Below, in pieces: positions 43,801 through 63,922 of a stretch of DNA of 64,000 nt (positions are counted from its first letter, which is position 1; each line of letters opens with the position of its first letter). Origin of the DNA: an uncultured Gammaproteobacteria bacterium (GTDB lineage: Bacteria; Patescibacteriota; Microgenomatia; UBA12405). The notes beneath the pieces were generated by a model. The model was not told the DNA's origin. It worked only from the letters and a program-made list of their open reading frames with translations, and did not search any database. The position numbers and the translations under genes were made by a program. Location of the stretch: the NCBI GenBank assembly GCA_964463925.1, contig CAYXDV010000002.1:19-64018 (forward strand), read 5' to 3'.

Positions 43801-44060
43801 ACATCAACACCAGAAGCATCAATCACTCTCTTTTGTCCATTACAAGTATGTCCGGAATACATAGACCAATTACGATCTATATAACCATCCTTACAAATTC
43901 TAACTGCATTGTCAGCATCACTCCAGTCACACACAGCACCAACAGAACAATCCTGGGCAGGTATTAGACTCGTGACTGCCTCCACTTTACCAACCACCCC
44001 AAATATCATAATAAACCCAAAAATTAGTACACCAAAAAGATCCATACTTAAACATAACAA
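40839..44060 (-). CDS. secreted 1073-aa repeat protein (three ~270-aa tandem modules + Cys-rich knot + C-terminal dockerin-like module)
   Basis: Signal/TM. The module VRCVSSSISSGSLDMSNVGNTVTVTATIDNPTGNW...IENMESCVQKLHLSR occurs three times. The shared CSVGAVCDWSDADNAVRICKDGYIDRNWSMY module occurs twice. C-terminus CKNDGGLGTDWRCCHRTCVNNSC...DYNNDAKVDISDFMIWKDRY...FLVWKTAY. Confidence 0.85.
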   Translation of the reverse strand: MLCLSMDLFGVLIFGFIMIFGVVGKVEAVTSLIPAQDCSVGAVCDWSDADNAVRICKDGYIDRNWSMYSGHTCNGQKRVIDASGVDVSYMYGPNLNAPTAYGDNSGYSCSSGGLTWVRPSNASLGAPMAYVVMVNDRSINADYVPTSTASNYDPKDKWIVVTDHQVALGYAALNLTPGVSYDIGVWPYYLNEPYGKWSRHSIYRIGPQVMCAAPTNPPPTKIPVRCVSSSISSGSLDMSNVGNTVTVTATIDNPTGNWNSLAMYNLENLYSANNPKDALLPAVGNVKIGNSGTTASYQDNAIVNTVSATRKTFTWAVKAGDISGIDAATGKVVNDLQFHTYAGGWPIENMESCVQKLHLSRTNPSPTNIPSTALLAPTSITYSCSNTTLTWNRPTNAGSNLINYVIMVNDHKLNDSYLPGTGTGKDPNDQWIVVNDQQSAINLSKSLSLVADDSIDIAVQPYYKAEDYAQWSRHGVGIIGPQIMCTSPTSPSPTRIPVRCVSSSISSGSLDMSNLGNTVTVIATMANATGNWNSLAMYNIGNTDAGGNAKPAIITGGNVHIGATAGQPSYQDNAAVSTSGPNKTFTWAVRAGDISGIDAATGKVVNDLQFNTYAGGWPIENMESCVQRLHLSRVTTSQPCSVGAVCDWSDADNAVRICKDGYIDRNWSMYSGHTCNGQKRVVKNVGGVEQDVSYMYGPNLNAPTVSVGNGYSCSSKILTWNRPANAGTSPLAYVVMVNDRSTNVNYTPTTTDPNYDPKDRWIVISDQKTGVGSTTLNLTPGVSYDIGVWPYYVAEPFEKWPRHSIYRFGPQVMCTAEAVRCVSSGISSGSLDMSSVGNTVTVTATIDNPTGNWNTLAMYNIGNTDSNGNARPAILVGDNVHIGATAGQPSYQNNATVSTISTARKTFSWIVKAGDIGGTDAATGKVVNDLQFNTYAGGWPIENMESCVQKLHLSRAGDSTYSCPGTPVACACAGPGCKNDGGLGTDWRCCHRTCVNNSCRTVTGSGANSCATDGVSCSSTLLGDYNNDAKVDISDFMIWKDRYNLGQMTFGDFLVWKTAYLAPETISSTIAPP

Positions 44061-44081: not shown

Positions 44082-46481
44082 TTATTCCTCAATAATCCAG
44101 TTTTTAATCTTTGCAGCTAATGCGTTTTCTCCAAAATCAGCTAGTCCAGCTGCACCCCACATCTGAAAACAAGAAGACTGTGGGTCACAAGGAAAATTTA
44201 GAATAGTAAACCAAAAAACTTTCTCAGCACCTGATTTCAATTGATCATCTATCCACCAATCAAAATTATTAACAACGTTTCCAACTGAATTTCCTCCAGC
44301 TGGGATATTGGCAGATCTCTTAAAATATTGATCTATGTTTGTCTCAGTTACCCAAACAGGTATTTCCCCCCACCCCAAACTCTGTAAATATCTATGTGTC
44401 CTTGCCACCTCTTCTCCAGGCGGAATTATCGAATATGTATGTATATTCATCACATCAAAAGGTATTCCAACATTCCTCTTCTTTATTTCAGAAAGCATAG
44501 AGTTACCAATCAAGGCCGGTTCCCCAGGTTCTGCTATCTGCCAAGCACCAAAAGCATTTACTACTACTTTTGCTTCAGGATCTATTTTTTTTATTTCTCT
44601 ATAAGTCGCAATCAGCAAATCTGCATAACTTTGTTCTTTTGTCTTTCCTGGTTCAGGCACAAAAAAAGCGCTATCCACGTCTGCTTCATTCCAAATCTCC
44701 CAATTTTTTACTTTATTTTTATATCTAGTAACTACAGCATCCACATATCCAAGCCAGTCAGTTAAATTTTGAGCTGGATATTTTTCCCTTTCTGCAGGAA
44801 TAGAAACTGAACTTGGAGCTGAGCTAGCCCAAGCTGGAGATGTACCCAATATCACTGATAAGTTATCTTCAGTTTGATATAGATTCATCACATAATCAGA
44901 CGCAGCCCAATTCCATTGTCCCTTGTTTGTTTCTAACGCACGCCATGGAAGATCTTCTCTGGCCAATTTCAACCCCATACCTTTAAAAACCCCATATTGT
45001 TTCTCTACATTTTGTAATGCATCTTGGGGTGTTTTACCTCCTGCTCCTGTAGCCCAAACATAATAATTAAACAAATAATTACCCATCCCAAACTGACTTT
45101 TCCTTAATCCTCCTTTGGCCACATAAACATCCTTCCACTTTAGGAAATCACTTATTGCTAATTGATTTAGTACATATTTTTGCTTCCAATAAACAAAGTC
45201 ATTCAAGTCAATAAAGTTATCATGATTCACATCAGCAGGAGAATACACAGTCCCACACTTACTACCTTCTCCGTCACATTTATTATCACCACTGCCAGCA
45301 ACCGTACTGCAGGCATTATTCACGCATTCCCGATGACAACACCTAAAATCAGTGTTTGACCCTGCCTCGTTCTTGCAGGCACCACCTATACAAGAACAAA
45401 CACCAAAGGATCCTGTACATGCAAAGCTGGTATCTATCAAATGCATACCTTGCAGTTGCCAGTATCCCCAATTATCGCTTGCCGATAGTTCATAAGGAGC
45501 CCCAAAGCCAGCATAAATGTCGCTTATCCCGTAAATCTTTCCTTCTCTGTCACTCAATAGCCCAACATTGTGGGCAAAATCTGGAAAGTTATTTTCAGCC
45601 TCAATCATTCTTATTTCACTCCAGTTAACTCCATCTTGAGATGTTCTATACCCCAAAGCACTATTAGATGTATGCGAATTTTGTATTTGCATCATCACAA
45701 ATTGTTTATTCACCTCATCATATTTTATATCGGGTGAATGACCACGTACGTTGCTCAAATTCGTTTCTTTGGAAATAAAGTTTATTCCATCATCTGACGT
45801 AGCCATAAAAAGACCAGGGATCGATCGATATGCAGTATCATCCATATACCACATATAAGCTTTATTATCCCTCCAAACAACCGATTGTTGTCCGGCTCCA
45901 TACGGCGCATCCAATGTTGTTATATTTTTTGCTTTCACTATTTTCTTTGGAAATTGTGGGTTGTTTTGCCAAGTATTGTCTTCCGCTAAGGTTAAGTATG
46001 GGCCTTCTATATCTTGAGATCTGGCTACCGAAATATAGCTCGAAAACAAACTTGTGGCCAAATCAATTTCCAAGGCATTCGAATAATACAAATAGTAATA
46101 GCCATCTTTATAAGTCAAACTTGGATCACAAGCTGCCAGATTTTCATATTTACCAACTGAATTTTTTGTTTGTCGTGAAAATAAAACCACTTTTGGCTGG
46201 CTCCAAGTTTTTAGATCAGTACTTTTTACCAATCTAACAACATCCCATCCATCAGCCTCATCTATATTAATAGGTCTGCTGCAAAAAAAAGCATAGTAGG
46301 ATCCATTATCTTTTATCAAAGATGGAGCATAGGCGTAATTGTAACCACCCTTTTGGGGTAATGCTATTGGATTAGAAAAGTCAATTCTGTAGTCCTCGGC
46401 TTTTACCCAAGCTGGTTTTACACCAAAGATAAAGGCTATCAACCCTGCTATTGCCAATAATAAAGTTTTTTTAAATATCAT
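44082..46481 (-). CDS. secreted two-catalytic-domain protein: N-terminal GH43-like beta-propeller, internal Cys-rich knot + dockerin-like module, C-terminal GH5/GH39-like (clan GH-A) domain
   Basis: Signal peptide. ACDPSLTYKDGYYYLYYS, a GH43-type DPS...GxYYLYY motif. CKNEAGSNTDFRCCHRECVNNAC...DVNHDNFIDLNDFVYWKQKY...FLKWKDVY. NWEIWNEAD, a clan-A acid/base EIWNE motif, and VWVTETN, a nucleophile-like motif. Confidence 0.75.
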   Translation of the reverse strand: MIFKKTLLLAIAGLIAFIFGVKPAWVKAEDYRIDFSNPIALPQKGGYNYAYAPSLIKDNGSYYAFFCSRPINIDEADGWDVVRLVKSTDLKTWSQPKVVLFSRQTKNSVGKYENLAACDPSLTYKDGYYYLYYSNALEIDLATSLFSSYISVARSQDIEGPYLTLAEDNTWQNNPQFPKKIVKAKNITTLDAPYGAGQQSVVWRDNKAYMWYMDDTAYRSIPGLFMATSDDGINFISKETNLSNVRGHSPDIKYDEVNKQFVMMQIQNSHTSNSALGYRTSQDGVNWSEIRMIEAENNFPDFAHNVGLLSDREGKIYGISDIYAGFGAPYELSASDNWGYWQLQGMHLIDTSFACTGSFGVCSCIGGACKNEAGSNTDFRCCHRECVNNACSTVAGSGDNKCDGEGSKCGTVYSPADVNHDNFIDLNDFVYWKQKYVLNQLAISDFLKWKDVYVAKGGLRKSQFGMGNYLFNYYVWATGAGGKTPQDALQNVEKQYGVFKGMGLKLAREDLPWRALETNKGQWNWAASDYVMNLYQTEDNLSVILGTSPAWASSAPSSVSIPAEREKYPAQNLTDWLGYVDAVVTRYKNKVKNWEIWNEADVDSAFFVPEPGKTKEQSYADLLIATYREIKKIDPEAKVVVNAFGAWQIAEPGEPALIGNSMLSEIKKRNVGIPFDVMNIHTYSIIPPGEEVARTHRYLQSLGWGEIPVWVTETNIDQYFKRSANIPAGGNSVGNVVNNFDWWIDDQLKSGAEKVFWFTILNFPCDPQSSCFQMWGAAGLADFGENALAAKIKNWIIEE

Positions 46482-47649
46482 AGCTACCCTTCCAATCTAA
46501 AAATTTTGAAAGATTAGATGTTCCAGAGATATATCCTTGTTTCCAGAATAAGAAATCATTTAAATCAACTTTTCCATCTTTGTTCAAATCGGCATTATAA
46601 GAATCACATCCAAAAGTAACTGGATAATCAGTTTTCAATTCACCGCTCTTATACATTTCCTGCAAATGTAAACTTACATTTTTTACCCTAGACATAAATT
46701 CAGGATTTCTAATCATTGGCACTTCACCCAGATTAGCCGTAATTTCACCTGTCCCAGGCCATTCATAAAAATACCACCACATCAAACCAAAATTATCACT
46801 GTATTCTCTGGTAATGTTTATCTGTTCCATTAGTTGGTCTTCGCTGGGCCAGTAGATATTGTCTCTATTGCAATTAACAGTACCGCTAAGCAAACCACAA
46901 TTCCACATGCCCATACCTTGAATTATTCTATACAGATTCTTTGGCCTAGACATTTGGTTGGGAACATCTGCCACTCTATTCATTAATAGTTGAAGTAAGT
47001 TTCTAAGTTCACCTAGATTACGCATATAAGCAGGCGAGCCATCCTGCTTTTTTACAGTAGAATCATTTGGATTCCAATAAGGAAACCAGACTAAACCGGT
47101 CATGTCTGCATAATTGGTGTATAGCAAAGCTCTATCATCACCTGTGTTTACCATGTGTACCATTGTCGGATGAGCTGAGTCTATTTGTCTAATAAAATCA
47201 ATAATCGGCTTAAAATTCTTACGAACCACACCATCCATCGGCACGTTTATTTCTGGTTCATCAAAATACATATATCCATACAAACCTTCATTATTTTTTA
47301 TTCCATTCAACCAAGTTCTGAGTTGGTCTTGCATATTTACACTGCTGGCAAAATCTCCTCCTCCAACAAATCCAGTCATATTCAAAATAACTTTTACCCT
47401 TGCTGCCTTGGCTGCATTTAAGGCCTCCAGCGTAGACGACAAACTCCCATACCTACCCATTAAAATATTTGCCCCAGCATCATCTCTAATCTTTGTAGCA
47501 TAATCAGCCGTACCCCCAAAATTATGCCACACGGCAACTGGATATTCTTTTGTGCAAGTATCTTGCGATGCCAAAATTTTTATTGGATTAAACAGCTCCA
47601 AGATTAACAGTCCAAAAACAAACCAACAGTAAATGCTGAATTTAAACAT
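46471..47649 (-). CDS. secreted hydrolase-like protein with C-terminal dockerin-like module (paralog of 47642..48781)
   Basis: Signal peptide. YMYFDEPE segment, possibly a TIM-barrel glycosidase acid/base. C-terminus DLNKDGKVDLNDFLFWKQGY...FLDWKGSY. Confidence 0.7.
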   Translation of the reverse strand: MFKFSIYCWFVFGLLILELFNPIKILASQDTCTKEYPVAVWHNFGGTADYATKIRDDAGANILMGRYGSLSSTLEALNAAKAARVKVILNMTGFVGGGDFASSVNMQDQLRTWLNGIKNNEGLYGYMYFDEPEINVPMDGVVRKNFKPIIDFIRQIDSAHPTMVHMVNTGDDRALLYTNYADMTGLVWFPYWNPNDSTVKKQDGSPAYMRNLGELRNLLQLLMNRVADVPNQMSRPKNLYRIIQGMGMWNCGLLSGTVNCNRDNIYWPSEDQLMEQINITREYSDNFGLMWWYFYEWPGTGEITANLGEVPMIRNPEFMSRVKNVSLHLQEMYKSGELKTDYPVTFGCDSYNADLNKDGKVDLNDFLFWKQGYISGTSNLSKFLDWKGSYDI

Positions 47650-48781
47650 AACTTGCCCTCCAACTCAAAAAAGTATTTATATTAGTCTTGCCACCCACAT
47701 ATTCATTCTTCCAGAATAAAAAATCATTTAAATCAACTTTTCCGTCTTTGTTTAAATCGGCACCAATAGCAGACAATCCACCACCACAGCCAACTCTAAC
47801 TGGGTAATTTGTATTGATCTCTCCATCTTTATACATTTTCTGAACTTCTTGGTTCACGTATTTAACATCATTCATAAGACGAGGACTATTAACCATCCCT
47901 ATTTCCCAAGCACTAGTATCTGTTATCGAAGTTGGCCAACTGTACATATACCACCAAACTGCTCCAAATTTATTTGTAATCTTTTTCATAGTATCTATTT
48001 GCCTTCTCACTTCATCATAACTTAAAAAATAAGGATCTTCTCCTTCACGATTACCATAATAGGGTCTCATACCATCAGCCTGAGCGATAAAATAGTAATT
48101 TTTACTAAGAGCTGGATTCGCTTGTTCACTTCTTTGAACCATTCTTGTCCAAGCATTAACAACATCCTCATATTTCCAGGCATATCTATTGGAGTCAGAA
48201 TAATCCTTTGGGTTCATAACTCCATAAGACACTGCCCCTGTCATATCAGCATATCCAAAAAAGGGAGTAGAATTGTCAGGATCTACACCCATATTCATAG
48301 CCCCTCCCCCCGAGGTATGTGCTAATACAGGATGTTCAGGATCTTCTTCTCTAATCAAATCTAACATTATTCTAAAATTATCCTTCAACCAATACATGCC
48401 ATTGCTCTGAACTCTCAACTCTGGTTCGTCCGCATACACATAGCCATACAGCCCAGGATGGTTTTTAATCTGCCTAATTTTCTGCCGCAAACTATTTTGT
48501 AAATTTATATCTGTCGAAAAATCCTTCATTGTGGCATATGTCTCCATAAACACCAACAATTGCACCCCATTAATTTGAGCCGCATCTAAACTGCTTTTTA
48601 ATGAATCATAACCAATATCAGTCATTACCACATTTATCCCGGTTCTGCCATAAACTTGACTAGCATATTCACCGGCTCCTCCAAAGTTGTTCCAACCAAA
48701 AATAGGAAACTCTAAATGGCAACTATCCACAGCCAACACTCCTCTAATTGATAAAAGTATCCAAGACAAGAACCAAAGCAT
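47642..48781 (-). CDS. secreted hydrolase-like protein with C-terminal dockerin-like module (paralog of 46471..47649)
   Basis: Signal peptide. YVYADEPE. C-terminus DLNKDGKVDLNDFLFWKNEY...FLSWRASY. It overlaps its paralog by 8 nt, which suggests an operon. Confidence 0.7.
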   Translation of the reverse strand: MLWFLSWILLSIRGVLAVDSCHLEFPIFGWNNFGGAGEYASQVYGRTGINVVMTDIGYDSLKSSLDAAQINGVQLLVFMETYATMKDFSTDINLQNSLRQKIRQIKNHPGLYGYVYADEPELRVQSNGMYWLKDNFRIMLDLIREEDPEHPVLAHTSGGGAMNMGVDPDNSTPFFGYADMTGAVSYGVMNPKDYSDSNRYAWKYEDVVNAWTRMVQRSEQANPALSKNYYFIAQADGMRPYYGNREGEDPYFLSYDEVRRQIDTMKKITNKFGAVWWYMYSWPTSITDTSAWEIGMVNSPRLMNDVKYVNQEVQKMYKDGEINTNYPVRVGCGGGLSAIGADLNKDGKVDLNDFLFWKNEYVGGKTNINTFLSWRASYV

Positions 48782-53821: not shown

Positions 53822-53943
53822 GTTCTGGCCGCGACCTATCTTCGGCACCCCGTTGCCGGGGCACTATTGTCAGCGCTATCGTGTTTCACGACTCTGTTCG
53901 GAATGGGAAGAGGTGGTACCACAGATGCTCTGGCGACCAGAAC
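53822..53943 (-). rRNA. rrf: 5S ribosomal RNA
   Basis: The reverse strand reads GTTCTGGTCGCCAGAGC...CCCATTCCGAACAGAGTCGTGAAACACGATAGCGC...GGTCGCGGCCAGAAC. This is the 5S helix I/III/IV/V pattern, about 122 nt. Confidence 0.85.
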
Positions 53944-56370
53944 AAAATGCAGTGTATTTGTTTGACCAATTATTAAAAATTTAACAACTTGAGTAAGCTG
54001 CTTGAAATGAAACTAAAAAATAGTGATTCGATCTTGCCATCGCTTAGCTAAAACTCTTACGAGCCTTCCACCTGCAACGTATCAACCAGTAGTCTCCTGG
54101 CGATCTAATGATGGTTCCTTATCTTAGGGTCAGTTTCCTGCTTGAGATGCTTTCAGCAGTTATCTAATAGAAACGTGGCTACCCAGCATTGCACTTGAAA
54201 GCACAACTGGCACACCAGGGGTTTCCTCATCTAGGTCCTCTCGTACTGTAGATGAATCCCTTCAAGAACCAAACGATTATAGAGGATAGAGACCGAGCTG
54301 TCTCACGACGCTCTGAACCCAACTAACGCAGCGCTTTAATGGGCGAACAGACCAACCCTTGGCCCCTTCTTCAGGGCCAGGATGCGCCAAGTCGACATCG
54401 AGGTGCCGAACCCTGTCGTCAATGTGAACTATCGGACAGGACTAGCCTGTTATCCCCAGAGTAGCTTTTATCCAGTAAGCCCGTGCCCAAACCAATTGGG
54501 TCACGAGGATCACTAAAACCGTCTTTCGACCCTGCTTCCAAACTCAAAATTGGTTGGAAGTCCGCCTTACGGCGGATTCGACCTGTTTGTCTCACAGTCA
54601 AGCCAGCTTATGCTTTTGTACATACAGTCCGATTTCCTGCCGGACCAAGCTGACCTTTGTATACCCGCGTTACCTTTTAGCAGGTGCCTGCCCCAGGCAA
54701 ACTAGCAACCATACACTGTCTCCCCGTTTTTTCGGGGGTAAGACTCGCATGCAATCAAGGGAGGTGTTCCATTGTCGCCCGAAGGCTCCCTCCTACACTC
54801 GACAATAAAGGCATACTCATCAATGTAAAGATCCAGTAAAGCTTCATGGGGTCTTTTTGTCCTTCTATAATTAAACGGCATCTTCACCGCTCTTTCAATT
54901 TCGCTGGATGGATGATTAAGACAGTTACACGGTCGTTAACTCTTTCATACGCGTCGGAACTTACCCGACAAAGGACTTCGCTACCTTAGAACAGTTAGAG
55001 TTACTGCTGACGTTCACGAGGGCTTGTAAACAAGGCTCAACCTTGCGGTATCACCCGGCTTTTTAACCTTCTCGCACCGGTCAGAGTCCAGCCCCTATAC
55101 TTCCCCTTACGGGTTTGCAGAGACCTGTGTTTTTGGTAAACAGTCGCCGTGTATTCTTTTGTTGTAGCCTCGATAAATCGAGGCAGGGCATCTCGTAGAC
55201 TTACGCCCAGCTAATTTGCCAAGTTCCTTAACCATCCTTCTTCCAATCACCTTGGTCTACTCGACCAACCCACCAGTGTCGGTTTACGGTACGATTACAT
55301 TTTTATCTAGTTACTACATTTTTTTCAGACGCATGGATCGCAATACTCCCAAGCTTACGCCTAGTTGTATTCATAGCTCGCTTTAAAACGGTAAACCGGA
55401 TTTTCCTAATTTACCTAGCTAAACTTCTTTAAAAGTCGAATTCAGATCGACTCTATTGCTACCACACCCCGTCCTGCTATAACTTAAAACGATAAAAACG
55501 TAGGACCGGAATATTTACCGGTTATCCATCCACTTATCTACCATTACAGTAGCTTCATGTTAGGATCGCCTTACCCGCAGTCGATAAACGTAGCTGCGGA
55601 AACCTTGGGTATTCGGTGGCCTGGATTCTCACCAGGCTTACGCTACTCATGTCTGCATTCTCACTTCTAGCCACTCCACCAGCCCTTACGGACCAACTTC
55701 ATCGCAACTAGAACGCTCTCCTACCAGATGTCCGCCAAAGGCGGACAAATCTCCAATTTCGGCACTATGCTTGAGCCTCGTTACATTTTCGGCGCGCAAT
55801 ACCTAAGTAGACCTGTGAGCTATTACGCTTTCTTTAAAGGATGGCTGCTTCTAAGCCAACCTCCAGGCTGTCTAAGGTATCACACTTCCTTTCCCACTGA
55901 GCATAGATTTAGAGGCCTTAATTGAGAGTCCGGGATCTTCCCCTTTTGTCTAACCAGCTTAGCCCGGCTAGACTGACTGCCACGCTTAGATGTATGGTAT
56001 TCAGAGTTTGGTTAAACACCAGTCCTTGCGAACTAAATGCTCATCCAGTAGCTTTACCCCCACACATAAACACGTGACGCTATACCTAAATATATTTCGG
56101 AGAGAGCCAGCTATCTCCGGTTTCGATTGGCATATTACCCCTAACCACAGATCATCCGATACCTTTACAGCGGTAATCAGTACGGGCCTCACCCCGATTT
56201 TCGTCGGGGGTCACCCTGCCCATGGTTAGCTCAACCGGTTTCGGGTTAACTGCAACCGTCTATTCGCCTTATTCAGACTCGCTTTCGCTACGCCTACTCC
56301 GCCTTAGGCGGATTAAACTTGACGGCAACAATCACTCGCAGACTCATTCTTCAATAGGCACGACATCACC

Positions 56371-56510
56371 CATGTCCAACACTCGAAATCTAGACATTCA
56401 AAACAAAATAAATTTTTTCGAGAACGTCCCCGCAGCGTAGCGAGGAAGTCCGGCGAGAAAAAATTACGTTTTGTTTTGAAATAAGTTTAGGTTTCCAGTG
56501 TCAGACACAG
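56371..56510 (-). repeat. 23S rRNA intervening sequence at the helix-25 position (hairpin with conserved 17-19-bp base stem)
   Basis: rRNA-sense TGTGTCTGACACTGGAAAC...about 100 nt AT-rich with a GC-rich core...GTTTCGAGTGTTGGACATG. It sits between the conserved GAAACC...ACAAGC and CCTATTGAAGAATGAGTC flanks that correspond to E. coli helix 25. Confidence 0.55.
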
Positions 56511-56905
56511 GCTTTGTCTGTTTGTTAGCATATGGTTTCAGATCTATTTCACTCCGGTAACTACCGGTGTTTTTCACCTTTCCCTCGCGGTACTAGTTCA
56601 CTATCGGTCCGCCAAAGTATTTAGCCTTGGAGATTGGTCTCCCCAGATTCCTACGGGATTTCACGTGCTCCGCAGTACTCAGGTACCAAACCATACTTTT
56701 ACTAGTTTTCGGATACGGGACGTTCGCCCTTTTTAGTCGACTGTTCCAAGTCGTTCTCCTGACTTTCAAAGTAATTATGTCTGGCCCTACAACCCCTATC
56801 TTGCGATAGGTTTAGGCTCTTCCGTTTTCGCTCACCGCTACTGACGGAATCTTTTTAATTTCTTTTCCTCCGGGTACTTAGATGTTTCAGTTCCCCGACT
56901 TACCC

Positions 56906-57049
56906 AGCTGTCCAACACTCGAAACTTGTTATACCTATTTAAATTTACGAAATAACTAATTTTTCGCACGCAATCATGCACGGCGCGTGAGTACAAAAAA
57001 TTATGTTATGAGTAAAAATTTAAATACAAGTTTCCAGTGTCAGACAGCT
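56906..57049 (-). repeat. 23S rRNA intervening sequence at the helix-9 position, homologous termini to the helix-25 element
   Basis: rRNA-sense AGCTGTCTGACACTGGAAAC...about 105 nt AT-rich...GTTTCGAGTGTTGGACAGCT. It sits between CCGAATGAGGAAAC...ATGGAAGC and GGGTAAGTCGGGGAACTGAAACATC. Confidence 0.55.
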
Positions 57050-57324
57050 TCCATAGTATTTCTACTACAGGAGTTTCCTCATTCGGACATTGTGGGATCA
57101 CAGCTTGTAGACAGCTCCCCCACACATTTCGCCGTCTTCCGCGTCCTTCATCGGCTTTGGCAACCAAGGCATCCACCATATGCTTTATTTCAATATTTTC
57201 CAGCTTATTTCAAGCAACTTAATTAAGTTGTCAATTTTCTTATATTAGTCAAACAAATTGTTAAAGTACAAATTATATTCAAAAAACCTAGTTTTCGACC
57301 AGGCTTTAGAGAATATAACCAGTG

Positions 57325-57397
57325 TGGACCTAAGGGGACTCGAACCCCTGACCCCCTCATTGCAAATGAGGTGCTCTACCAACTGAGCCATAGGCCC
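57325..57397 (-). tRNA. tRNA-Ala (anticodon TGC), immediately upstream of 23S
   Basis: Reverse strand GGGCCTATGGCTCAGTTGGTAGAGCACCTCATTTGCAATGAGGGGGTCAGGGGTTCGAGTCCCCTTAGGTCCA. The G3-U70 pair typical of tRNA-Ala is present. Confidence 0.85.
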
Positions 57398-57403
57398 TCG
57401 CAC

Positions 57404-57440
57404 CCCATTATTATACCTAAAAGAGCTATATAAATAAAAA
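57404..57440 (-). promoter_or_regulatory. candidate promoter of the tRNA-Ala/23S/5S transcript (perfect -10 TATAAT)
   Basis: The minus strand reads ...TTTATT(-35-like)...N17...TATAAT, then 12 nt to the tRNA 5' end. The -35 is weak and AT-rich. Confidence 0.35.
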
Positions 57441-57462
57441 AGCCGAAGCTTTTTGCTTCGGC
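57436..57462 (-). terminator. rho-independent terminator of the GH18-like gene (minus strand)
   Basis: GCCGAAGC-AAAAA-GCTTCGGC hairpin followed by TTTTTT on the minus strand. Confidence 0.55.
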
Positions 57463-57568
57463 CATAAGACATTTGTTTTTAGATCAACAATAGTTTATGT
57501 GTATACATGCCGAAGTTTTATAGGTGAGGCCATTTTAGCCCAGAAAACACCCCAAGTCAACGAGGTAG

Positions 57569-58612
57569 TTATTCCAATAATCTGGCTAATTTATCTCCGA
57601 ACTTACCTTCATACCCCAATGCCCACCAAGCCACACCTCCATAACCATATTTTTCTACCCGACCTATCTTTGCCATCAAGCTTCGTTCGTTTTCAAAATA
57701 GATTTGCCTAATTTGCGATCCCAATTTATAAACTAACCAAGGAGTATCTGTAACCTCATCGTAATTTACTTTGATTTTCCAGTTGTTTTTTAAAAAGTCT
57801 TCCATTCTACCCAGGCTGGCCAACATCCTCACACTTCGGGGATGGAGTATTGAACCAAAATCAGTGGTTTTAGTTCTCCATTCATACCCATACAAAGGCA
57901 GGGCTACCACCAAACGTCCTTTATCTACTGGCAACTGATTTACTCTTTCAAATATATTTTCCAAATCTACCCCAGCCTTGCCAGCCAATGGAGCCACTGG
58001 TCCAGCTAATCCAGAATCATAAAAATCATAGGCCATAAAGACTACCCTATCTGTTTTTTCAAATAATTTTTTTAGTTTGCCGGCATCACCTTTGTATAAG
58101 GTGTTTCCAAAAACATCAACCGACAACTCCCCGCCTATCCGCGATCTTAAAACTGATAAAAAGCTAAAATAACTCTCATCGAGTATGGCTGTGGGGCTCT
58201 TTTGATATTCAAAATCAATATTAAACATATCTGCTCCAATTTTCTTCTCCAGTTCACTAGCCTGTCTAAAAAATACTTCCCAATAATCTTTATTAGTTAA
58301 AAACTTATCTAAATCCTTGTCTTTTAACATACTAAAAACCACACCAACTTTCCCACCTTTATTCCTAACTATCTCACTTTGTTTTTTAAAGGATTCTGAA
58401 AAAATTCTACGACTAGCAAAGTCCCACTGTAAGTTGCCATCGCCTTTTACTGGCACCGAAAAAAAGAAAAGTTTGTCCACCAAATCTACTCTAGGATTAT
58501 CAGCTAATCTCCAGTTAGGCAAAAATCCCCACTGTTCTGTCTTGGCAAATATTTCTCCACATGCAGTCGTCAAAAACAAAAATACAAAAAACAATGTTAC
58601 TTTCCAACTCAT
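57569..58612 (-). CDS. secreted glycoside hydrolase family 18-like protein (chitinase/peptidoglycan-hydrolase-like TIM barrel)
   Basis: Signal peptide. GADMFNIDFEY resembles the GH18 DxxDxDxE catalytic motif. The C-terminal YGYEW...GGVAWWALGYE resembles the GH18 end. It lies between tRNA-Ile and tRNA-Ala. Confidence 0.65.
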   Translation of the reverse strand: MSWKVTLFFVFLFLTTACGEIFAKTEQWGFLPNWRLADNPRVDLVDKLFFFSVPVKGDGNLQWDFASRRIFSESFKKQSEIVRNKGGKVGVVFSMLKDKDLDKFLTNKDYWEVFFRQASELEKKIGADMFNIDFEYQKSPTAILDESYFSFLSVLRSRIGGELSVDVFGNTLYKGDAGKLKKLFEKTDRVVFMAYDFYDSGLAGPVAPLAGKAGVDLENIFERVNQLPVDKGRLVVALPLYGYEWRTKTTDFGSILHPRSVRMLASLGRMEDFLKNNWKIKVNYDEVTDTPWLVYKLGSQIRQIYFENERSLMAKIGRVEKYGYGGVAWWALGYEGKFGDKLARLLE

Positions 58613-58650
58613 TTATTCATCCTACGTAGTTTTCCTTTGATAGTCAATTG

Positions 58651-58724
58651 TGCGCGAGCATGGACTCGAACCATGGACCTCAGTCTTATCAGGACTGCGC
58701 TCTAACCAACTGAGCTACACGCGC
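58651..58724 (-). tRNA. tRNA-Ile (anticodon GAT)
   Basis: Reverse strand GCGCGTGTAGCTCAGTTGGTTAGAGCGCAGTCCTGATAAGACTGAGGTCCATGGTTCGAGTCCATGCTCGCGCA. There is one U-U mismatch at 6-67. CCA is not encoded. Confidence 0.75.
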
Positions 58725-58773: not shown

Positions 58774-60366
58774 TTAATACTTCTGTGCTTGCCGTTCACT
58801 AAGGGTCAATTTCAACAAATTCAAATCCTGAGCGTTAACAGTACAATTAAAGTCCATATCATAACTTCCCAAATTACTACTACCAAGATTCTTTATCAAT
58901 TCAGCATAGTCCAATCCATTAACCACATCATCACTGTTTGTATCACCTGGCGATAGTGGGTACTTTGAAAAATCAAAAGTTGCTCCAGGAATAATTCTCA
59001 GTTTTCCTTGAAGAGCATTGTAGTACTGACTCTGACCATCTTCACCAAATTTAGTAGTAACTTCCAAGGGACCTCTGACCAAAATAGAAGCGTTATCAAG
59101 TGGGTTTGGCAACCCCTCAGTACTTACAGAAGCTGTATAAACTGCATTAAACAAATCGCATTTATTTTCTGCGTTATTCCAAACACGACAATAATTTCCA
59201 GATTTAATAATTGGTACTTTTTTGTATTCTTTCTCAACTCCAGCTCCTTTAATAATTACATCAACCGTCTGCGGCTTCGCACAGATAGTGGTGGCATAAT
59301 CCATCAAACCAGAAAAACTAAGTTTAAACTGCATATTCCCAGCTGATCCCCCAGTAACTGGTATCGCAACATCTGGAGATATCGACAAAGTAGTATTTTG
59401 CAAACTTGCAGTTGCAGATGCATCAAAAGATGTACCTTTCCAAGCAGTAAATTCGTAATTACCAACAGACATAACTGTAGTATTTTGACTTGAGTCAGTG
59501 TTGGTAAGCTTAATGGTGGCAAGTTCAACATCACCACTAGGTAAAGAAGAGTTGGGAGAAGTTGAGTCTACTCGACGCAAACCATAAATTGAAACAGATC
59601 TATCACTATTCTTTGTAAAACTAGGACTAAATAGCGCAGAATTTACGCTAGAATTACCCATTGAGGATGCAAAAATCCAACCTCCAGCGGCAGGCAGATT
59701 CAAATCTAAAGCATAAGAATCAAATCTCGCATCTTGAGGCACTTTTGCAAAAAGCTTAAAAGATACTTCACTACCTACCTGGGAAACAGGTCCCGCAAAA
59801 AGTCCAAACGTAAAATCCTTAGCACTAGCTGGAGGGGTTGTATTTTTTTTTTGATCGACAAATGTAACTCCGACTAAATTAGTGGAAATTGGCGAAGCCA
59901 CATTAAACTGCGTCAGCATCGTCTCTGTTCCGAAATTTAAATTAGAAGGCAACTGAAGTGGCTTCACTACAACATCAGCAACATGAACTACTCCAGTAGG
60001 AAAATCAGGTGGATCTTTTACTAAATTCAGTCTAGCCACGCCATCGCCAATAGTATTTCTAACTTGTGTTTGAAAAGCAGCAGTTTTTGTAATGCTAACG
60101 ATCCGCAATTTAGATGGATCAAAAGTAAACCTGATGTCCGCACTGTTCATTGGAACATTCAAACTATCTACCATCAATTGCAGAGAAATTTGCTGTCCTA
60201 CTTGTCCCTCGATCTCACCCAATTTATTTCCTGAAGAATCAACAAAATAAACAGAAGCACTACTAGCATCAGCCGACCTTCGCAAATCAGCATTTTTACC
60301 AAGCAACAAGACTGCAGCCGCCAAACCCAAAGCCAACAAACATACAACAACTATCTTTTTGCCCAT
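58774..60366 (-). CDS. membrane/signal-anchored cohesin-domain protein with C-terminal canonical tandem dockerin (scaffoldin/adaptor-like)
   Basis: N-terminal hydrophobic anchor. The cohesin-like segment VGQQISLQLMVDSLNVPMNSADIRFTFDPSKLRIVSI parallels type-I cohesin GDTVRIPV...CDFVYSYDPNVLEI. C-terminus GDTNSDDVVNGLDYAELIKNL...DMDFNCTVNAQDLNLLKLTL, two dockerin Ca-loop/helix repeats. Confidence 0.6.
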   Translation of the reverse strand: MGKKIVVVCLLALGLAAAVLLLGKNADLRRSADASSASVYFVDSSGNKLGEIEGQVGQQISLQLMVDSLNVPMNSADIRFTFDPSKLRIVSITKTAAFQTQVRNTIGDGVARLNLVKDPPDFPTGVVHVADVVVKPLQLPSNLNFGTETMLTQFNVASPISTNLVGVTFVDQKKNTTPPASAKDFTFGLFAGPVSQVGSEVSFKLFAKVPQDARFDSYALDLNLPAAGGWIFASSMGNSSVNSALFSPSFTKNSDRSVSIYGLRRVDSTSPNSSLPSGDVELATIKLTNTDSSQNTTVMSVGNYEFTAWKGTSFDASATASLQNTTLSISPDVAIPVTGGSAGNMQFKLSFSGLMDYATTICAKPQTVDVIIKGAGVEKEYKKVPIIKSGNYCRVWNNAENKCDLFNAVYTASVSTEGLPNPLDNASILVRGPLEVTTKFGEDGQSQYYNALQGKLRIIPGATFDFSKYPLSPGDTNSDDVVNGLDYAELIKNLGSSNLGSYDMDFNCTVNAQDLNLLKLTLSERQAQKY

Positions 60367-60369
60367 ATT

Positions 60370-61674
60370 TTATTGATGAACAATGGTGTTTGCCCACAAT
60401 TGGTAATCAGCTAAAGTAACTTTTCCATCACAATTAAAATCTCCTTGCCAATGGTCAGATTGCTGACTCCTGGCAACTCCAGCAGAGCCGTTTGTTTGAA
60501 AATATTCTCCGGCCCACATTGTGTAGTCAGTGTTATTTATCAGATTATCGCATGCATTCAAACTAACCGAATAAGCATTACCTGCAGATCTTGGTGGCTG
60601 CTCTGAAGTACAAATTCTACAAACTCCCACTCCAGTAATTGGGACAACAGTACTAACAGGTGCGGTTGGTATCGGGGAAGCAGGGGGCGTTGTCGGTTCT
60701 GAACCAGCAGGAGGTACACACTTCCAAACCTTACAATTCAAATCGCCTTTTGTAGAAATAGTCTTCATTACTGAAGTCCATCCGGCGGGACATTGTTCTC
60801 TACACAAAGCAAGTTTTGAACCTGGGTCAGTCGAGTCAGAACAACCAAACTGAAGAGTACTGCATGCAGGAACGGTATAGGTCGACCCAAAACACGAACT
60901 CACCGATTTATTTAAGCAATAATTATCATCACCCACTTCAGAGCCACTACATGACCCAGATGGTTTAGTGCAATTAGTTGGGGGATTGGTCGGAGGCACA
61001 GATGTCGCCGAAGGAATTGTTGGTTCCGGGGCCACTGATCCAACTGGATCAACACCTTTTATATTGATAGTGGTTTTACCAGAGGCACTAGTGCTAATTG
61101 GTTCAGCCACAGAACTACCCACATATCCCACATTACCACTAGACAGGGATAAATCTGTGCTAGTGTTAGCCCCACTTTTAATCCTAAAATAATACCCAAC
61201 CACATATACTTCCCCTGGATTTTCTACTCCTCCTGATGCCGTCGAGACGCCTGTAAAATCAATGGTTCCCGAAGAAGAGGTATTTTTTACCACCGAAGTA
61301 GTATCCGGATCAAAGAACAAAGTATTGGTTGCTGTTACCCCACCAATAAGGTTAGTTCCTGGTCTTAGGGCATATCCTATCGCCGAAGCACTTTGTGGCA
61401 AAACTTCTAGTTTAGAAGCATCGTATTGCATCCTAAATTCCACAGCAGTTACTTTCTTGGCCGTTTCTCCGGCTCCTGGAAGAGGAGGACTAATTTTTAC
61501 ATATACCAAAAAGGTATCCCCTACTGATCTGGTAACCGATTCAGGAAAAAACAGCAACCTGTTCTCTCCACTATAAGCACTTTTCTGTAAATTCTGATTT
61601 TTGTTTAATAGAACAAATCCAGCTAGTAATCCAGACAGCAACAATGCCAAAGAAACCACTTTTACTAATTTCAT
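60370..61674 (-). CDS. anchored cohesin-domain protein with Thr/Pro/Cys-rich region and C-terminal single dockerin-like repeat
   Basis: N-terminal TM/signal. The cohesin-like VGDTFLVYVKISPPLPGAGETAKKVTAVEFRMQYDASKLEVL. Pro/Thr linkers and many Cys. C-terminus GDFNCDGKVTLADYQLWANTIV. Confidence 0.55.
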   Translation of the reverse strand: MKLVKVVSLALLLSGLLAGFVLLNKNQNLQKSAYSGENRLLFFPESVTRSVGDTFLVYVKISPPLPGAGETAKKVTAVEFRMQYDASKLEVLPQSASAIGYALRPGTNLIGGVTATNTLFFDPDTTSVVKNTSSSGTIDFTGVSTASGGVENPGEVYVVGYYFRIKSGANTSTDLSLSSGNVGYVGSSVAEPISTSASGKTTINIKGVDPVGSVAPEPTIPSATSVPPTNPPTNCTKPSGSCSGSEVGDDNYCLNKSVSSCFGSTYTVPACSTLQFGCSDSTDPGSKLALCREQCPAGWTSVMKTISTKGDLNCKVWKCVPPAGSEPTTPPASPIPTAPVSTVVPITGVGVCRICTSEQPPRSAGNAYSVSLNACDNLINNTDYTMWAGEYFQTNGSAGVARSQQSDHWQGDFNCDGKVTLADYQLWANTIVHQ

Positions 61675-61694: not shown

Positions 61695-62588
61695 TCAACC
61701 CTCCGTCAACAAGGAAACTATGGCCTTTGCTACATTTATGCCAGTACTTTTTTCAAATCCCTGAAACTGACATTGCCGGTTTACTTCCAGCACATAGCTC
61801 CTGCCATTTTCATCTTTCATAATATCTACGCCACAATAATCCAAACCTACTACTTTGGCTACTTTTTCAGCAATTTGTCTATCTTCTTCACTCAAATCAT
61901 ATTTTTCCACTGCCCCGCCCAAACTAAAATTACTTCTAAATTCGCTCCCCACTGCCATCCTCTTCATTGCTCCTAAAACCTTACCCCCAATCACAATTAC
62001 GCGTATATCCCATTTTAGACTTAAATAATCTTGCCATATGTGCATTCCCAGTTTGATCTCATCCATCTTATCCAAGCGCATCAAAAGTTCCTGTTCATTG
62101 TTTAGCTTTCTGACACTCCTTCCTTGAAATCCACGATCATGCTTTACAATCACAGGGTAAGAAAATTGGTATTTTTTAACCTGCTCTTTTGTATAAAAGA
62201 TCCTGCTTGGTACTACTGGTATTTCGTTTACCACATATACTCCATGCTGAGCTATTTTTCCCATTCTTTCCCATTTGGTATAGCTATCTCCGTTACAGCA
62301 AAAAACTCCTTTTTCTCTTAAAACTCTAATCATGGCTGCTCGTCCAATTGGGTATTTGCCAGTTTTTGTTCCAGCCACCCTGAACCACAAACCAAAAGTA
62401 TTTTCTGCACTTACTTTTTCCCCTCCCACCAAAACTTCTGCTTGGTTATTATTCAGTTCCAATTGCATTTCCCGATAAGCAGCGTGTCGAGCTAGCACAC
62501 CCATTTTTTCCGCCTCCTCCAGTACCCTAGCCACCTCATACCCTCGACGTTTATTGTTCATTGTAAATAATAAGATTTTTTTATTCAT
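61695..62588 (-). CDS. RimK-family ATP-grasp ligase (alpha-L-glutamate ligase-like)
   Basis: ATP-grasp segments YPVIVKHDRGFQGRSVRKL, VIVIGGKVLGAMKR and YVLEVNRQCQFQGFEKSTGINVAKAIV match the RimK/LysX pattern. Confidence 0.8.
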   Translation of the reverse strand: MNKKILLFTMNNKRRGYEVARVLEEAEKMGVLARHAAYREMQLELNNNQAEVLVGGEKVSAENTFGLWFRVAGTKTGKYPIGRAAMIRVLREKGVFCCNGDSYTKWERMGKIAQHGVYVVNEIPVVPSRIFYTKEQVKKYQFSYPVIVKHDRGFQGRSVRKLNNEQELLMRLDKMDEIKLGMHIWQDYLSLKWDIRVIVIGGKVLGAMKRMAVGSEFRSNFSLGGAVEKYDLSEEDRQIAEKVAKVVGLDYCGVDIMKDENGRSYVLEVNRQCQFQGFEKSTGINVAKAIVSLLTEG

Positions 62589-62591
62589 ATA

Positions 62592-63518
62592 CTATATATA
62601 GTATAAATTTTTAAATAATTTAATTATTTCTCTAGGTACATCAATCCCTGTCGCCTGCATAAAACCTTTAAATTGAGGTCCTCTATTCACTTCCCAAAAC
62701 ATTGGCTTGTTCAGATTATCGTCTTCAAATACCAAATCTACCCCTGCAATTGCCAAACCGCAGGCACTAGCCGCCCTAACACACAAGGCTTTGGCTTCCT
62801 CACTTATCCAAGCTACTTCTACTTTTCCTCCCCTGGAAAAATTATTTCTAAATTCTCCCTCCACCTGCCTACTTCTTTTCATAGCTCCAAGTACTTTATT
62901 ACCCATTACAATTACTCGATAGTCTCCATCATTTTTTATATACTCTTGGGCCAAATACCTGCGCCCATCGTTAATCTCGCTAACTCTAAGCTCACGCACT
63001 AGTTTAGTCAATTCTTCTTGATTTTCCACTTTATACACACTCCCGCCTCGGTGACCGCCACTACCTTTTATGATCATCGGAAACCCCAAATAGGCAGCTG
63101 CTTCCCGATTTAAATACCACAAACTACCATATAGAGTTTTGGGTATCGGCAGCCCTGCCCGACTCAGGGCCAACATCTGGTAAGCTTTACAGGCATCTGT
63201 TGGTCTTGCTTGTTCGACTATTGGGTCAATTACAATCTTCTTTAGCCTTTTTGCCTCATCAACTATCCAAGATACTTCTTGCCAGTGTTTTTTAGCCGTA
63301 CGAATAAATATCAAATCAAAATCAGCAATGGTAAATTCCTTTTGATTTCTGGTTGATTTAGTTAACCCATCACGCAACATTACCTTAGCTTCTTGACTAT
63401 TAAAATAAATTCTATTGTAAGAAAAAAGCTGCAAAAAGACATCTTCTTTTTTAGCTGCTCTTTTTAGCTCCACCAAATGGTTACTGAGTTTTCCTCCATA
63501 AAATACAGCTATTTTCAT
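62592..63518 (-). CDS. RimK-family ATP-grasp ligase (second tandem paralog)
   Basis: FPMIIKGSGGHRGGSVYKV, VIVMGNKVLGAMKR and FWEVNRGPQFKGFMQATGIDVPREII. Confidence 0.8.
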   Translation of the reverse strand: MKIAVFYGGKLSNHLVELKRAAKKEDVFLQLFSYNRIYFNSQEAKVMLRDGLTKSTRNQKEFTIADFDLIFIRTAKKHWQEVSWIVDEAKRLKKIVIDPIVEQARPTDACKAYQMLALSRAGLPIPKTLYGSLWYLNREAAAYLGFPMIIKGSGGHRGGSVYKVENQEELTKLVRELRVSEINDGRRYLAQEYIKNDGDYRVIVMGNKVLGAMKRSRQVEGEFRNNFSRGGKVEVAWISEEAKALCVRAASACGLAIAGVDLVFEDDNLNKPMFWEVNRGPQFKGFMQATGIDVPREIIKLFKNLYYI

Positions 63519-63922
63519 ATTTTTTTTGTTTTACCAACTAATTTCTTTTTCTTCTTTGGTCCTTTAAGTTTAACCACAAAACCTCTTAGATCTCTTCTTC
63601 CAATCAAGAATTTAGTCTTTAATTTCCCTCTTGGAGCAACACCGACCTGTCCACGTACTAACTTACCAGCTAAATAAAAAGTTACTCCAACAACCGGTCT
63701 GTCAACGTCTCTTCCCAAGGATGACCTAAAATGCCTTGTATACAAAACTTTGTCTGGGTTTAACAATTTTAATTTCTCTGCCAAATCTCGATCAATTGAA
63801 CTACGATAAGCACCTGTATCAATTTTAGCTCTAACTGGAACTACCTCTTTTTTCTTCCTGCCTATTTTTACAAGTATTCTTTCGATTGGTTTTACTACCA
63901 CTACCTCTTTTTTTGGTTCCAC
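63515..63922 (-). CDS. retropepsin-like aspartic peptidase family protein (the RimK-associated 'ATP-dependent Zn protease' family), basic C-terminal tail
   Basis: AKIDTGAYRSSID carries a D-T-G-A active-site-like motif. This family is typically encoded next to rimK. The ORF stays open upstream to the window edge (GTG start assumed in the track), so the true 5' end is uncertain. Confidence 0.6.
   Translation of the reverse strand: MEPKKEVVVVKPIERILVKIGRKKKEVVPVRAKIDTGAYRSSIDRDLAEKLKLLNPDKVLYTRHFRSSLGRDVDRPVVGVTFYLAGKLVRGQVGVAPRGKLKTKFLIGRRDLRGFVVKLKGPKKKKKLVGKTKKI

Follow-up and report, generated by a model that had tools for sequence, protein, structure and literature searches.

A cellulosome, as defined in the excerpt used here of a survey of 305,693 assemblies (PMC11557425), is built on a scaffoldin with at least two cohesins and an N-terminal CBM3, and the cellulosome producers named in that excerpt belong to clostridial or clostridia-related genera. 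Cohesin and dockerin genes have also been reported from Candidate Phyla Radiation (CPR) bacteria: genes for type I and type II cohesins and for dockerins are expressed in Ca. Shapirobacterales (BG1-G2) (Bell et al. 2022, PMC9123182), cohesin/dockerin genes occur in Ca. Roizmanbacterium according to the citation of Geesink et al. 2020 in PMC9123182, and an essential envelope protein of a cultured Saccharibacterium carries a dockerin domain (Wang et al. 2023, PMC10633639). Here we describe, in a 64-kb stretch of contig CAYXDV010000002.1 (hereafter the window, meaning the whole stretch analysed; GC ~38–40%), two adjacent open reading frames (ORFs), A (58774–60366, minus strand, 530 aa) and B (60370–61674, minus strand, 434 aa), whose products each contain a cohesin and end in a dockerin or dockerin-like module, together with seven other genes whose products carry a shortened dockerin. 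Cohesin and dockerin domains in Microgenomates are not new in themselves, and the proposal of a first-pass annotation that the locus amounts to an undescribed system falls in light of the three reports above. We propose, with a probability of roughly 0.6, that A and B form a surface pair that captures secreted dockerin-tagged proteins in a Microgenomates-type, probably Shapirobacteria-related, CPR bacterium.

Cohesin and dockerin modules of A and B

A and B lie on the same strand, head to tail and 3 nt apart, with B first. From its N-terminus A contains a putative hydrophobic anchor, a cohesin, a beta-rich middle part without family assignment, a conserved pre-dockerin domain and a two-loop dockerin. 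The cohesin domain (aa 31–176; 59839–60276, minus strand) scores 25.7 bits against Pfam Cohesin (PF00963), over the cut-off of 24.1 bits, on an aligned stretch of only aa 48–101. Cohesins were also the only best matches in sequence searches of the PDB: R. flavefaciens ScaB cohesins for A alone (E 0.02) and the A. cellulolyticus ScaB cohesin for a profile of the A and B domains (E 0.005). With a six-sequence profile of the A and B domains, HMMER was run exhaustively against 1.84 billion cluster representatives and returned 26 proteins at E ≤ 1e-3; next after two orthologues came long proteins that were matched in 4–8 stretches each, with E values down to 7e-20. Eight of these long proteins were scanned with Pfam, and every one is a classical multi-cohesin scaffoldin (Cohesin E 1e-38 to 1e-268); CBM3, CBM2, GH9 or dockerin is present in several of them as well. 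An AlphaFold2 (AF2) model of aa 31–176, made from an alignment of 18 sequences from the profile search, is all-beta and confident (predicted local distance difference test score (pLDDT) 86.1; predicted template-modelling score (pTM) 0.82), and the top 50 matches of the model in a Foldseek search of the PDB are cohesins without exception (TM score 0.51–0.75), with type I cohesins first (6kgf_C, E 4.8e-9, TM 0.74; 1g1k_A, TM 0.75). As modelled, the domain has the nine-stranded beta-sandwich (jelly-roll) fold of cohesins that the first-pass annotation had predicted for it.

At its other end, A matches Pfam Dockerin_1 (PF00404) at 35.7 bits (E 1e-8) over aa 473–521 (58804–58950, minus strand), an alignment that spans profile positions 1–55 of 57. 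We took a type I dockerin to consist of two tandem segments of ~22 residues, in both of which a 12-residue EF-hand-like calcium loop precedes a helix, and to score above the family cut-off of 22.9 bits. The C-terminus of A has two such segments, with the calcium loops DTNSDDVVNGLD and DMDFNCTVNAQD, and is a canonical dockerin with two loops; the earlier description of two classical repeats, with the motifs then quoted, holds. Directly before the dockerin is a conserved domain (aa 343–472; 58951–59340, minus strand) that sits where an X-module would and that had no match in a Pfam scan. This domain and the dockerin together (the last 190 residues of A) align with aa 576–758 of ORF 4477 in locus L098, a Shapirobacteria genome (27% identity, E 4e-18), and also with the C-terminus of protein P0023; both proteins share the two ends of A and are distant orthologues of it. 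We also considered a second cohesin in A (aa 176–335), prompted by the stretch 'VGSEVSFKLFAK...YALDLNL', and rejected it: Pfam gave no match there at E up to 10, and a cohesin hidden Markov model (HMM) gave an independent E value of 20. A scan of A and B against NCBIfam yielded nothing.

B contains a putative hydrophobic anchor, a cohesin, Pro/Thr linkers, a middle region with 14 cysteines and a C-terminal degenerate dockerin. Its cohesin domain (aa 33–208; 61051–61578, minus strand), which has an insertion of ~20 residues, scores 22.7 bits against Pfam Cohesin (E 1.2e-4), just short of the 24.1-bit cut-off, over profile positions 7–135 of 139. When a profile of B and two orthologues was compared by hhalign with scaffoldin cohesins, the probability was 73% (E 3.1e-5, 117 columns). 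By family score, then, A is a cohesin and B a borderline one, and the evidence for B is weaker than that for A but consistent. Thus the cohesin segments that had been recognized by eye in both proteins are borne out by Pfam, by the profile search, by the fold model of A and by hhalign for B. The Pfam models that had been suggested as a check place A over the cut-offs for both Cohesin and Dockerin_1 and leave B under both (22.7 and 14.8 bits).

The tail of B (aa 370–434; 60373–60567, minus strand) had been described as a single dockerin repeat. It does have just one canonical calcium loop (GDFNCDGKVTLADYQLWANTIV; with its flank, DFNCDGKVTLAD-YQLW). However, because a degenerate repeat (LNACDNLINNTDYTMW) is found upstream of the canonical loop DFNCDGKVTLAD, the tail is a decayed two-segment dockerin rather than one repeat; the degenerate copy of the loop, LNACDNLINNTD-YTMW, stands ~30 residues upstream of the canonical one. 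The 86-residue tail (aa 349–434) aligns by BLASTP with the C-terminus of an ORF of the Shapirobacteria locus L071 (35% identity, E 8e-13), which itself scores 26.3 bits against Dockerin_1. With 14.8 bits for the C-terminal fragment alone and a degenerate first loop, the tail of B falls outside type I dockerins as defined above, judging by its sequence. Between cohesin and tail, B has a Cys-rich stretch (aa 233–320; 60715–60978) with CGWCG... and C..C..C patterns, and similar stretches occur in several Shapirobacteria relatives.

Each of the nine proteins considered here (A, B and the seven with a short dockerin) has exactly one N-terminal hydrophobic segment. In the seven, this segment resembles an ordinary signal peptide with an end of the Ala-x-Ala type. 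In A (aa 5–23; 60298–60354, minus strand) and B (aa 6–24; 61603–61659, minus strand) the segment, 19–20 residues long and the sole hydrophobic one in either protein, is longer and more hydrophobic (Kyte-Doolittle 19-residue maxima of 2.99 at aa 5 and 2.29 at aa 6, respectively), and it is followed by a conserved polar motif, LLGKNADLRRSADAS in A and LLNKNQNLQKSAYSG in B. The helix is predicted to be a signal-anchor. The earlier statement that both proteins are anchored stands as a prediction from this single segment, and neither protein has an SLH domain or an LPXTG signal. Nearly all Microgenomates cohesin proteins that we saw have the same beginning, that is, an N-terminal hydrophobic helix of ~20 residues and then a LVKNNQETRRGAAASETS-like motif, which in relatives reads ...LV(K/R/Q)xNQ(E/N)x(R/K)RGAAA..ETS (for example in loci L042, L048, L071, L077, L098, L102, L014 and L057 and in proteins P0023, P0026 and P0031). 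The polar motif, which no family model matches, may serve as a juxtamembrane element of the anchor or may mark an atypical region of signal-peptide cleavage.

A shortened dockerin on seven exported proteins

The first-pass annotation had counted seven proteins with dockerin-like modules in the window, and a search for the back-translated pattern DxNxDxx[VI]x[LI]xDFxxWK found it exactly seven times there, compared with no occurrence in 100 shuffled sequences. The module comprises 41 residues with the consensus (A/G)DxNxDxxVxLxDFxxWKxxY-x6-(L/I)xxFLxWKxxY; the alignment of the seven has 12 invariant columns, and the module is shared among otherwise unrelated proteins of the window at BLAST E 1e-5 to 1e-13. 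Against Pfam Dockerin_1 it scores weakly (~14.5 bits, E ~0.04). The best PDB match of a seven-module profile is the type I dockerin 3ul4_B (E 1e-4), followed by further dockerins and EF-hands, and a word-index search with the same alignment found merely two fragments. In a joint alignment, a single gap separates this short form from the long dockerin of Microgenomates (see below): the short form is the long form minus one 12-residue block, consisting of the inter-repeat linker and the DxNxDG half of the second loop. Because the two forms are related in this way, we take the short module to be a lineage-specific truncated derivative of a genuine dockerin. The seven modules are thus derived by descent from dockerins and lie outside the canonical type I definition. 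(Note that the window contains three clearly different dockerin sequence types.) Chance resemblance as an explanation for the modules described so far was ruled out by the shuffles, the HMMER search, the Pfam scans of the scaffoldin matches and the Foldseek result.

The proteins that carry the module are diverse. The clearest enzyme is encoded at 44082–46481 (minus strand; motif DNA 45183–45233) and consists of GH43 (37.2 bits), a Cys-rich module, an internal short dockerin (aa 415–455) and GH10 (44.5 bits). Two others are GH51-like: an exported protein of 868 aa with a GH51-like N-terminal domain and a C-terminal short dockerin (4111–6717, plus strand; motif DNA 6598–6648) and a protein of 526 aa, weakly GH51/arabinofuranosidase-like, with the module again at the C-terminus (6680–8260, plus strand; motif DNA 8138–8188). 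The two are 55% identical over 460 aa, and the second matches NCBIfam ArfA at E 0.001 and GH51 arabinofuranosidases of the PDB at E 0.12–0.7; for both proteins the GH51/ArfA-like identity, at E 0.001–0.1, is weakly supported. The remaining four, all encoded on the minus strand with an export signal, are a 379-aa protein (47642–48781; motif DNA 47708–47758) and its 392-aa paralogue (46471–47649; motif DNA 46540–46590; Dockerin_1 E 0.038), which are 35% identical, a 605-aa protein (34535–36352; motif DNA 34607–34657) to which Pfam, NCBIfam and the PDB gave no assignment, each of these three with a C-terminal module, and a 1073-aa protein (40839–44060; motif DNA 40941–40991) made up of three ~300-aa repeats, a Cys-rich module and a near-C-terminal short dockerin followed by a short Ser/Thr/Pro tail. 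Hence, where all seven had been called hydrolase-like, the term fits the GH43–GH10 protein, applies weakly to the two GH51-like proteins and is not borne out for the four whose passenger domains are without family assignment.

Two further modules recur among these proteins. The ~300-aa repeat unit of 40839–44060, which has no match in Pfam or NCBIfam, also makes up the C-terminal half of 4111–6717 (46% identity over 348 aa); its function may be in binding. A Cys-rich module of ~55–70 residues stands directly before the dockerin in both 40839–44060 (aa 948–1020) and 44082–46481 (aa 343–412); the two copies are 45% identical over 116 aa and have no Pfam match. Between the clusters of dockerin genes lies an ORF of 2166 aa (28042–34542, plus strand) without a significant Pfam match.

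Since the assignable passengers are the GH43–GH10 enzyme and the two weakly GH51-like proteins, they point to hemicellulose (xylan/arabinan) as the substrate, in agreement with published inferences on groundwater Microgenomates (PMC9123182).

Dockerins and linked cohesins in other genomes

We surveyed one genome per GTDB species with a degenerate DNA pattern for the dockerin motif and obtained 110 stretches, in which two groups stand out. The first comprises ~60 high-GC loci of Planctomycetota, in which a single loop (GDLNxDGxVDxxDFxxWK, as in L012, L018, L021 and L027) stands 15–35 residues before a PEP-CTERM anchor (VPEPS, a hydrophobic segment and RRR). The second comprises 38 low-GC loci from metagenome-assembled genomes (MAGs) of the Microgenomates type, of which 24 are titled Shapiro-, Woese-, Gottesman-, Roizman- or Levybacteria, Microgenomates, Patescibacteria or Saccharibacteria, and 14 are titled 'uncultured Gammaproteobacteria' and have the same GC and gene types. 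(The taxonomy of these 14 records, L008, L009, L011, L014, L019, L024, L026, L037, L057, L058, L064, L066, L085 and L089, looks doubtful, with a GC of ~0.42 and CPR-type genes for dockerins and anchored cohesins.) In the low-GC loci the motif is C-terminal and occurs either as a long form, GDANxDGKVxLxDFxxWKxEYL-x6-ADFNxDGKVDLxDFxxWKxxYL, which is a complete dockerin with two loops, or as a short form, which does not differ from that of the window and was seen only in MAGs titled Shapirobacteria. Pfam Dockerin_1 matches 26 of the 45 motif-bearing proteins of the low-GC loci at E ≤ 1e-3 (best, 5e-9).

The survey also bears on whether the short modules bind cohesins. They could instead be calcium-stabilized structural or otherwise non-cohesin-binding tags that descend from dockerins and have no cohesin partner, as the identical loop motif beside PEP-CTERM in 60-odd Planctomycetota loci without a nearby cohesin, the deletion that removes the DxNxDG half of loop 2 and the low Dockerin_1 score would all suggest. 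We regard this as very improbable, given that the strong conservation of the module over unrelated passengers argues for a specific binding function, and that genomes with the short form, for example the Shapirobacteria MAGs AlinenLipids_bin-9586 and nzgw405, also hold the long form and cohesins.

To assess linkage, we searched every ORF in the 110 loci with an HMM made from the cohesin alignment; the loci themselves had been picked out by the dockerin motif only. Of the 38 low-GC, CPR-type loci, 10 have a cohesin ORF no more than 8 kb away, compared with two of the 72 others (Fisher p 4e-4). Eight loci have the cohesin gene on the strand of the dockerin-bearing gene, with its start ~20–400 nt downstream of that gene, and five of the linked cohesin ORFs exceed the Pfam Cohesin cut-off (24.2–37.4 bits). 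Many of the linked Microgenomates cohesin proteins end in a dockerin of their own. One protein, encoded at 6472–7998 (plus strand) of L102 in the Shapirobacteria MAG nzgw405, combines a hydrophobic anchor, a Pfam cohesin (35.9 bits) and three SLH domains; this is the layout of a classical anchoring scaffoldin, in a CPR genome. The sole two loci outside the CPR type with both a cohesin ORF and the DFxxWK motif come from Ca. Bathyarchaeota (L073, CP070759.1) and from an Anaerolineae MAG (L115), and in the latter both are in one protein.

A and B fit a recurrent layout, namely an anchor helix, a polar Q/N-x-R-x-A motif, a cohesin, a spacer and a C-terminal dockerin, beside a dockerin-bearing gene. 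The same layout is found in L071, L077, L098, L057 and L014 and in P0023, P0026 and P0031. Because these relatives have a like helix and motif, cohesin, dockerin and tandem pair, A and B belong to a recurrent class of Microgenomates proteins. Their closest relatives in the genome collection are in Shapirobacteria MAGs (L071, L098, L102), and L098 has B-like and A-like genes in tandem. The genome of the window is itself absent from the 110 stretches; the probable placement of the organism draws on its low GC, on the T4SS-pilin cluster and ATP-grasp operon beside the pair in L001 and L002, and on these Shapirobacteria relatives of its modules and proteins.

That A and B each combine a cohesin with a dockerin in a single polypeptide, and that the tandem pair is conserved, would also suit a purely self-binding assembly. 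In it, the A and B cohesins would take as partners only dockerins on A, on B and on cohesin-dockerin proteins like them, building a surface layer, fibre or tether, and the short modules would bind some other partner, be it a cohesin encoded elsewhere in the genome or a cell-wall or host glycan. The dockerin of A stands behind a conserved domain in the manner of scaffoldin-borne X-dockerins, the three dockerin types of the window are clearly distinct, and the enzyme genes are not next to A and B. In the relatives, however, an anchored cohesin gene usually has directly upstream of it a gene for a secreted protein that bears a DFxxWK dockerin and no cohesin, which argues for pairs of cohesin and passenger, and the cohesins counted here are those of 64 kb of the genome. 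On these grounds we consider that an assembly of scaffolds alone is unlikely.

The passengers of the relatives speak to the purpose of such a system. They include DUF4434, beta-helix/GH141, feruloyl and GDSL esterases, BNR, CBM4_9, M4 peptidase and HINT/toxin domains. The last two would be at home in a device for host attachment, in which surface cohesin-dockerin proteins and docked hydrolases adhere to and remodel the envelope of a host and do not digest free plant polymer. Such a device would accord with the CPR lifestyle and with the essential dockerin-domain envelope protein of the cultured Saccharibacterium, for which a host-glycan target was speculated by the authors (PMC10633639); in the window, a GH18 gene lies directly downstream of A and a peptidase with M23 and LysM domains is encoded inside the dockerin gene cluster. 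However, the GH18 and M23 proteins themselves bear no dockerin, the assignable passengers of the window belong to hemicellulase families (GH10, GH43, GH51-like), the feruloyl and GDSL esterases, beta-helix/GH141 and CBM4_9 of the relatives are typical of plant-polymer degradation, and no host is known. Host attachment therefore seems to us quite improbable as the main role of A and B.

The gene pair is conserved together with its surroundings. Orthologues of A (P0002, 89% identity; P0003, 67%) and of B (P0005, 73%; P0007, 90%) were found, and word-index homologue searches with A and B gave nothing beyond such close orthologues; the A-B gene order is kept in loci L001–L005. Two genes of the RimK-type ATP-grasp family and a small gene for an aspartyl/Zn-protease-like protein stand upstream of B on its strand, and downstream of A are tRNA-Ile, the GH18 gene, tRNA-Ala, 23S and 5S rRNA. 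The order ATP-grasp genes, B, A, (DUF4256), GH18 is found again in the relative with an A of 67% identity. Both that relative and a contig that matches the window exactly have T4SS-pilin-like genes clustered farther upstream. Because the gene order recurs and because of the pilin cluster, A and B are a conserved gene pair of a lineage with the hallmarks of CPR/Patescibacteria.

Several features of this neighbourhood are worth recording. The genes at 61695–63922 (minus strand), a conserved set of 7TM_transglut, ATPgrasp_ST, the two RimK-type ATP-grasp genes and the small aspartyl/Zn-protease-like ORF, are a peptide-ligase-type operon. Two lineages (L001, 4235–8247; L002, 4680–8698) keep this operon in synteny with the cohesin pair, and five T4SS-pilin-like genes lie beyond it there. 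The rRNA region (53823–58724, minus strand) has an unusual order, with tRNA-Ile(gat) at 58650–58724, GH18 at 57569–58612, tRNA-Ala(tgc) at 57324–57397, 23S at 54015–57199 and 5S at 53823–53941. Thus, the GH18 gene is placed between two spacer tRNAs, and no 16S gene lies ahead of them, where the cohesin genes occupy the expected place. The 23S match (54015–57199, minus strand) spans 3185 nt against a model of 2925 positions, and the ~260 extra nt are possibly an insertion of the sort common in CPR rRNA genes.

A putative surface-docking system compared with known ones

The preferred reading, capture of secreted dockerin-tagged proteins by A and B, would work as follows. A and B would be exported by Sec, most likely held in the membrane by the N-terminal hydrophobic helix, and each would project one type-I-like cohesin on Pro/Thr- or Cys-rich spacers with its own dockerin at the end. 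Secreted proteins of the same genome (at least seven in the window, including the xylanase/arabinofuranosidase-type GH43–GH10 enzyme and the two GH51-like proteins) bear the lineage-specific short dockerin, with one intact calcium loop, a truncated second repeat and two 'F-x-x-W-K-x-x-Y' helices. The most likely mechanism would be calcium-dependent docking of these proteins on the cohesins of A and/or B, by which a very small cell would retain polysaccharide-degrading enzymes on its surface; through their own dockerins, A and B may in addition bind each other or further cohesin proteins, allowing adaptor-style stacking. The identities of the modules, the export signals, the conservation of the gene pair and the linkage of cohesin and dockerin genes in relatives are what we observed; from these we infer membrane retention, each pairing of a cohesin with a dockerin, calcium dependence and the substrate.

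Several observations weigh against this reading. The short module lacks half of the second calcium loop and, at ~14.5 bits, may not be a competent cohesin ligand, and the Planctomycetota loci examined, which have the same calcium-loop motif, have no cohesin ORF nearby. The enzyme genes are at least 10 kb from A and B in the window, and four of the seven passengers are without family assignment. The polar motif that follows the helix may mark an unusual region of signal-peptide cleavage, and A and B would then be released and not anchored. As for the structural evidence, an AF2 model of full-length B from a three-sequence alignment was unusable (pLDDT 36.5), and the alignment behind the A-domain model includes seven rows of true cohesins that may bias the model to the cohesin fold; these seven entered through a profile search that was significant and unbiased.

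A more specific version of the preferred reading is that the locus encodes a distinct minimal system of Microgenomates, with single cohesins anchored by the helix and its conserved juxtamembrane motif, capture through a 41-residue 'one-and-a-half-repeat' dockerin that binds a single calcium, and chaining of cohesin proteins. We put this forward tentatively, as a proposal whose full combination of features is doubtful. If it were true, an ultra-small, possibly episymbiotic cell would have a modular set of surface tools with which to feed on polymers or on the envelope of a host, and a truncated dockerin that functions with a single calcium would bring a new mode of binding to the module family. 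Much of bacterial diversity belongs to CPR bacteria, whose surface organization is almost unknown; the locus offers a small, defined set of candidate receptor and ligand modules (two cohesins and three dockerin sequence types), and its dockerin variant is worth testing. Should the truncated dockerin bind, no natural dockerin would be smaller, designer enzyme display would gain a compact tag, and the module would show how cells with genomes of ~1 Mb hold scarce secreted hydrolases at their own surface; should it not, it would be an example of the decay or re-use of a dockerin.

With clostridial cellulosomes (C. thermocellum, R. cellulolyticum, C. acetobutylicum, R. flavefaciens) the system shares a type-I-like cohesin fold, EF-hand-type dockerins on secreted glycoside hydrolases, and scaffold proteins with a dockerin of their own, that is, the logic of adaptor and primary scaffoldins. 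However, clostridial scaffold proteins have 2–14 cohesins each, compared with one in A and one in B; they are anchored through SLH domains or by sortase rather than by an N-terminal hydrophobic helix, and the anchoring scaffoldin with cohesin and SLH domains is matched by the relative in L102 and not by A or B. The enzyme dockerin of the window has one complete calcium loop, and the window is without CBM3, X2 or a cellulase of GH5, GH9 or GH48; no CBM and no cellulase family was found in those of its proteins that were scanned, from 64 kb of the genome, and its dockerin-bearing hydrolases of lignocellulose type number one clear case (GH43–GH10) and two weak, GH51-like ones. We therefore rejected a cellulosome in the strict sense of the definition excerpted from PMC11557425, on account of one detectable cohesin each in A and B, no CBM found and no SLH or sortase anchoring. 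The label 'cellulosome-like' in the first-pass annotation applies only in a loose sense, for a combination of cohesin, dockerin and tagged hydrolases.

The single-loop motif of Planctomycetota (GDxNxDGxVDxxDFxxWK) has the same calcium-loop-plus-helix sequence as the window module; it differs in having one loop only, followed by a PEP-CTERM signal, in a high-GC context and without a cohesin ORF in the loci examined. The reports from Microgenomates (PMC9123182, and Geesink et al. as cited there) concern the same type of lineage, the same Pfam modules and the same co-occurrence with glycoside hydrolases as in the window. They are statements at the level of annotation or expression, in the case of Geesink et al. 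as relayed by Bell et al., whereas the present analysis gives the architecture; a literature search of incomplete coverage returned no description of the anchor motif, of a single cohesin with its own dockerin, of the tandem pair or of the 41-residue truncated dockerin.

The closer likeness is to non-cellulosomal systems. A cohesin of Archaeoglobus fulgidus (2xdh) and cohesin-like modules of the GH84/GH33 toxins of Clostridium perfringens (2jh2, 2vo8, 2w1n) are among the fold matches of the A domain (ranks 19 and 33–38). Peer et al. reportedly surveyed non-cellulosomal cohesin/dockerin proteins in 2009. Such proteins have single cohesins, at times in one polypeptide with a dockerin, and they assemble hydrolases without making a cellulosome; they differ from A and B in lineage and in the dockerin variant, and the window adds predicted membrane anchoring and a dense local set of dockerin-tagged proteins. 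With seven secreted proteins that bear a shortened dockerin near A and B, the locus looks like a minimal enzyme-docking system, of a kind noted before yet uncharacterized in this lineage.

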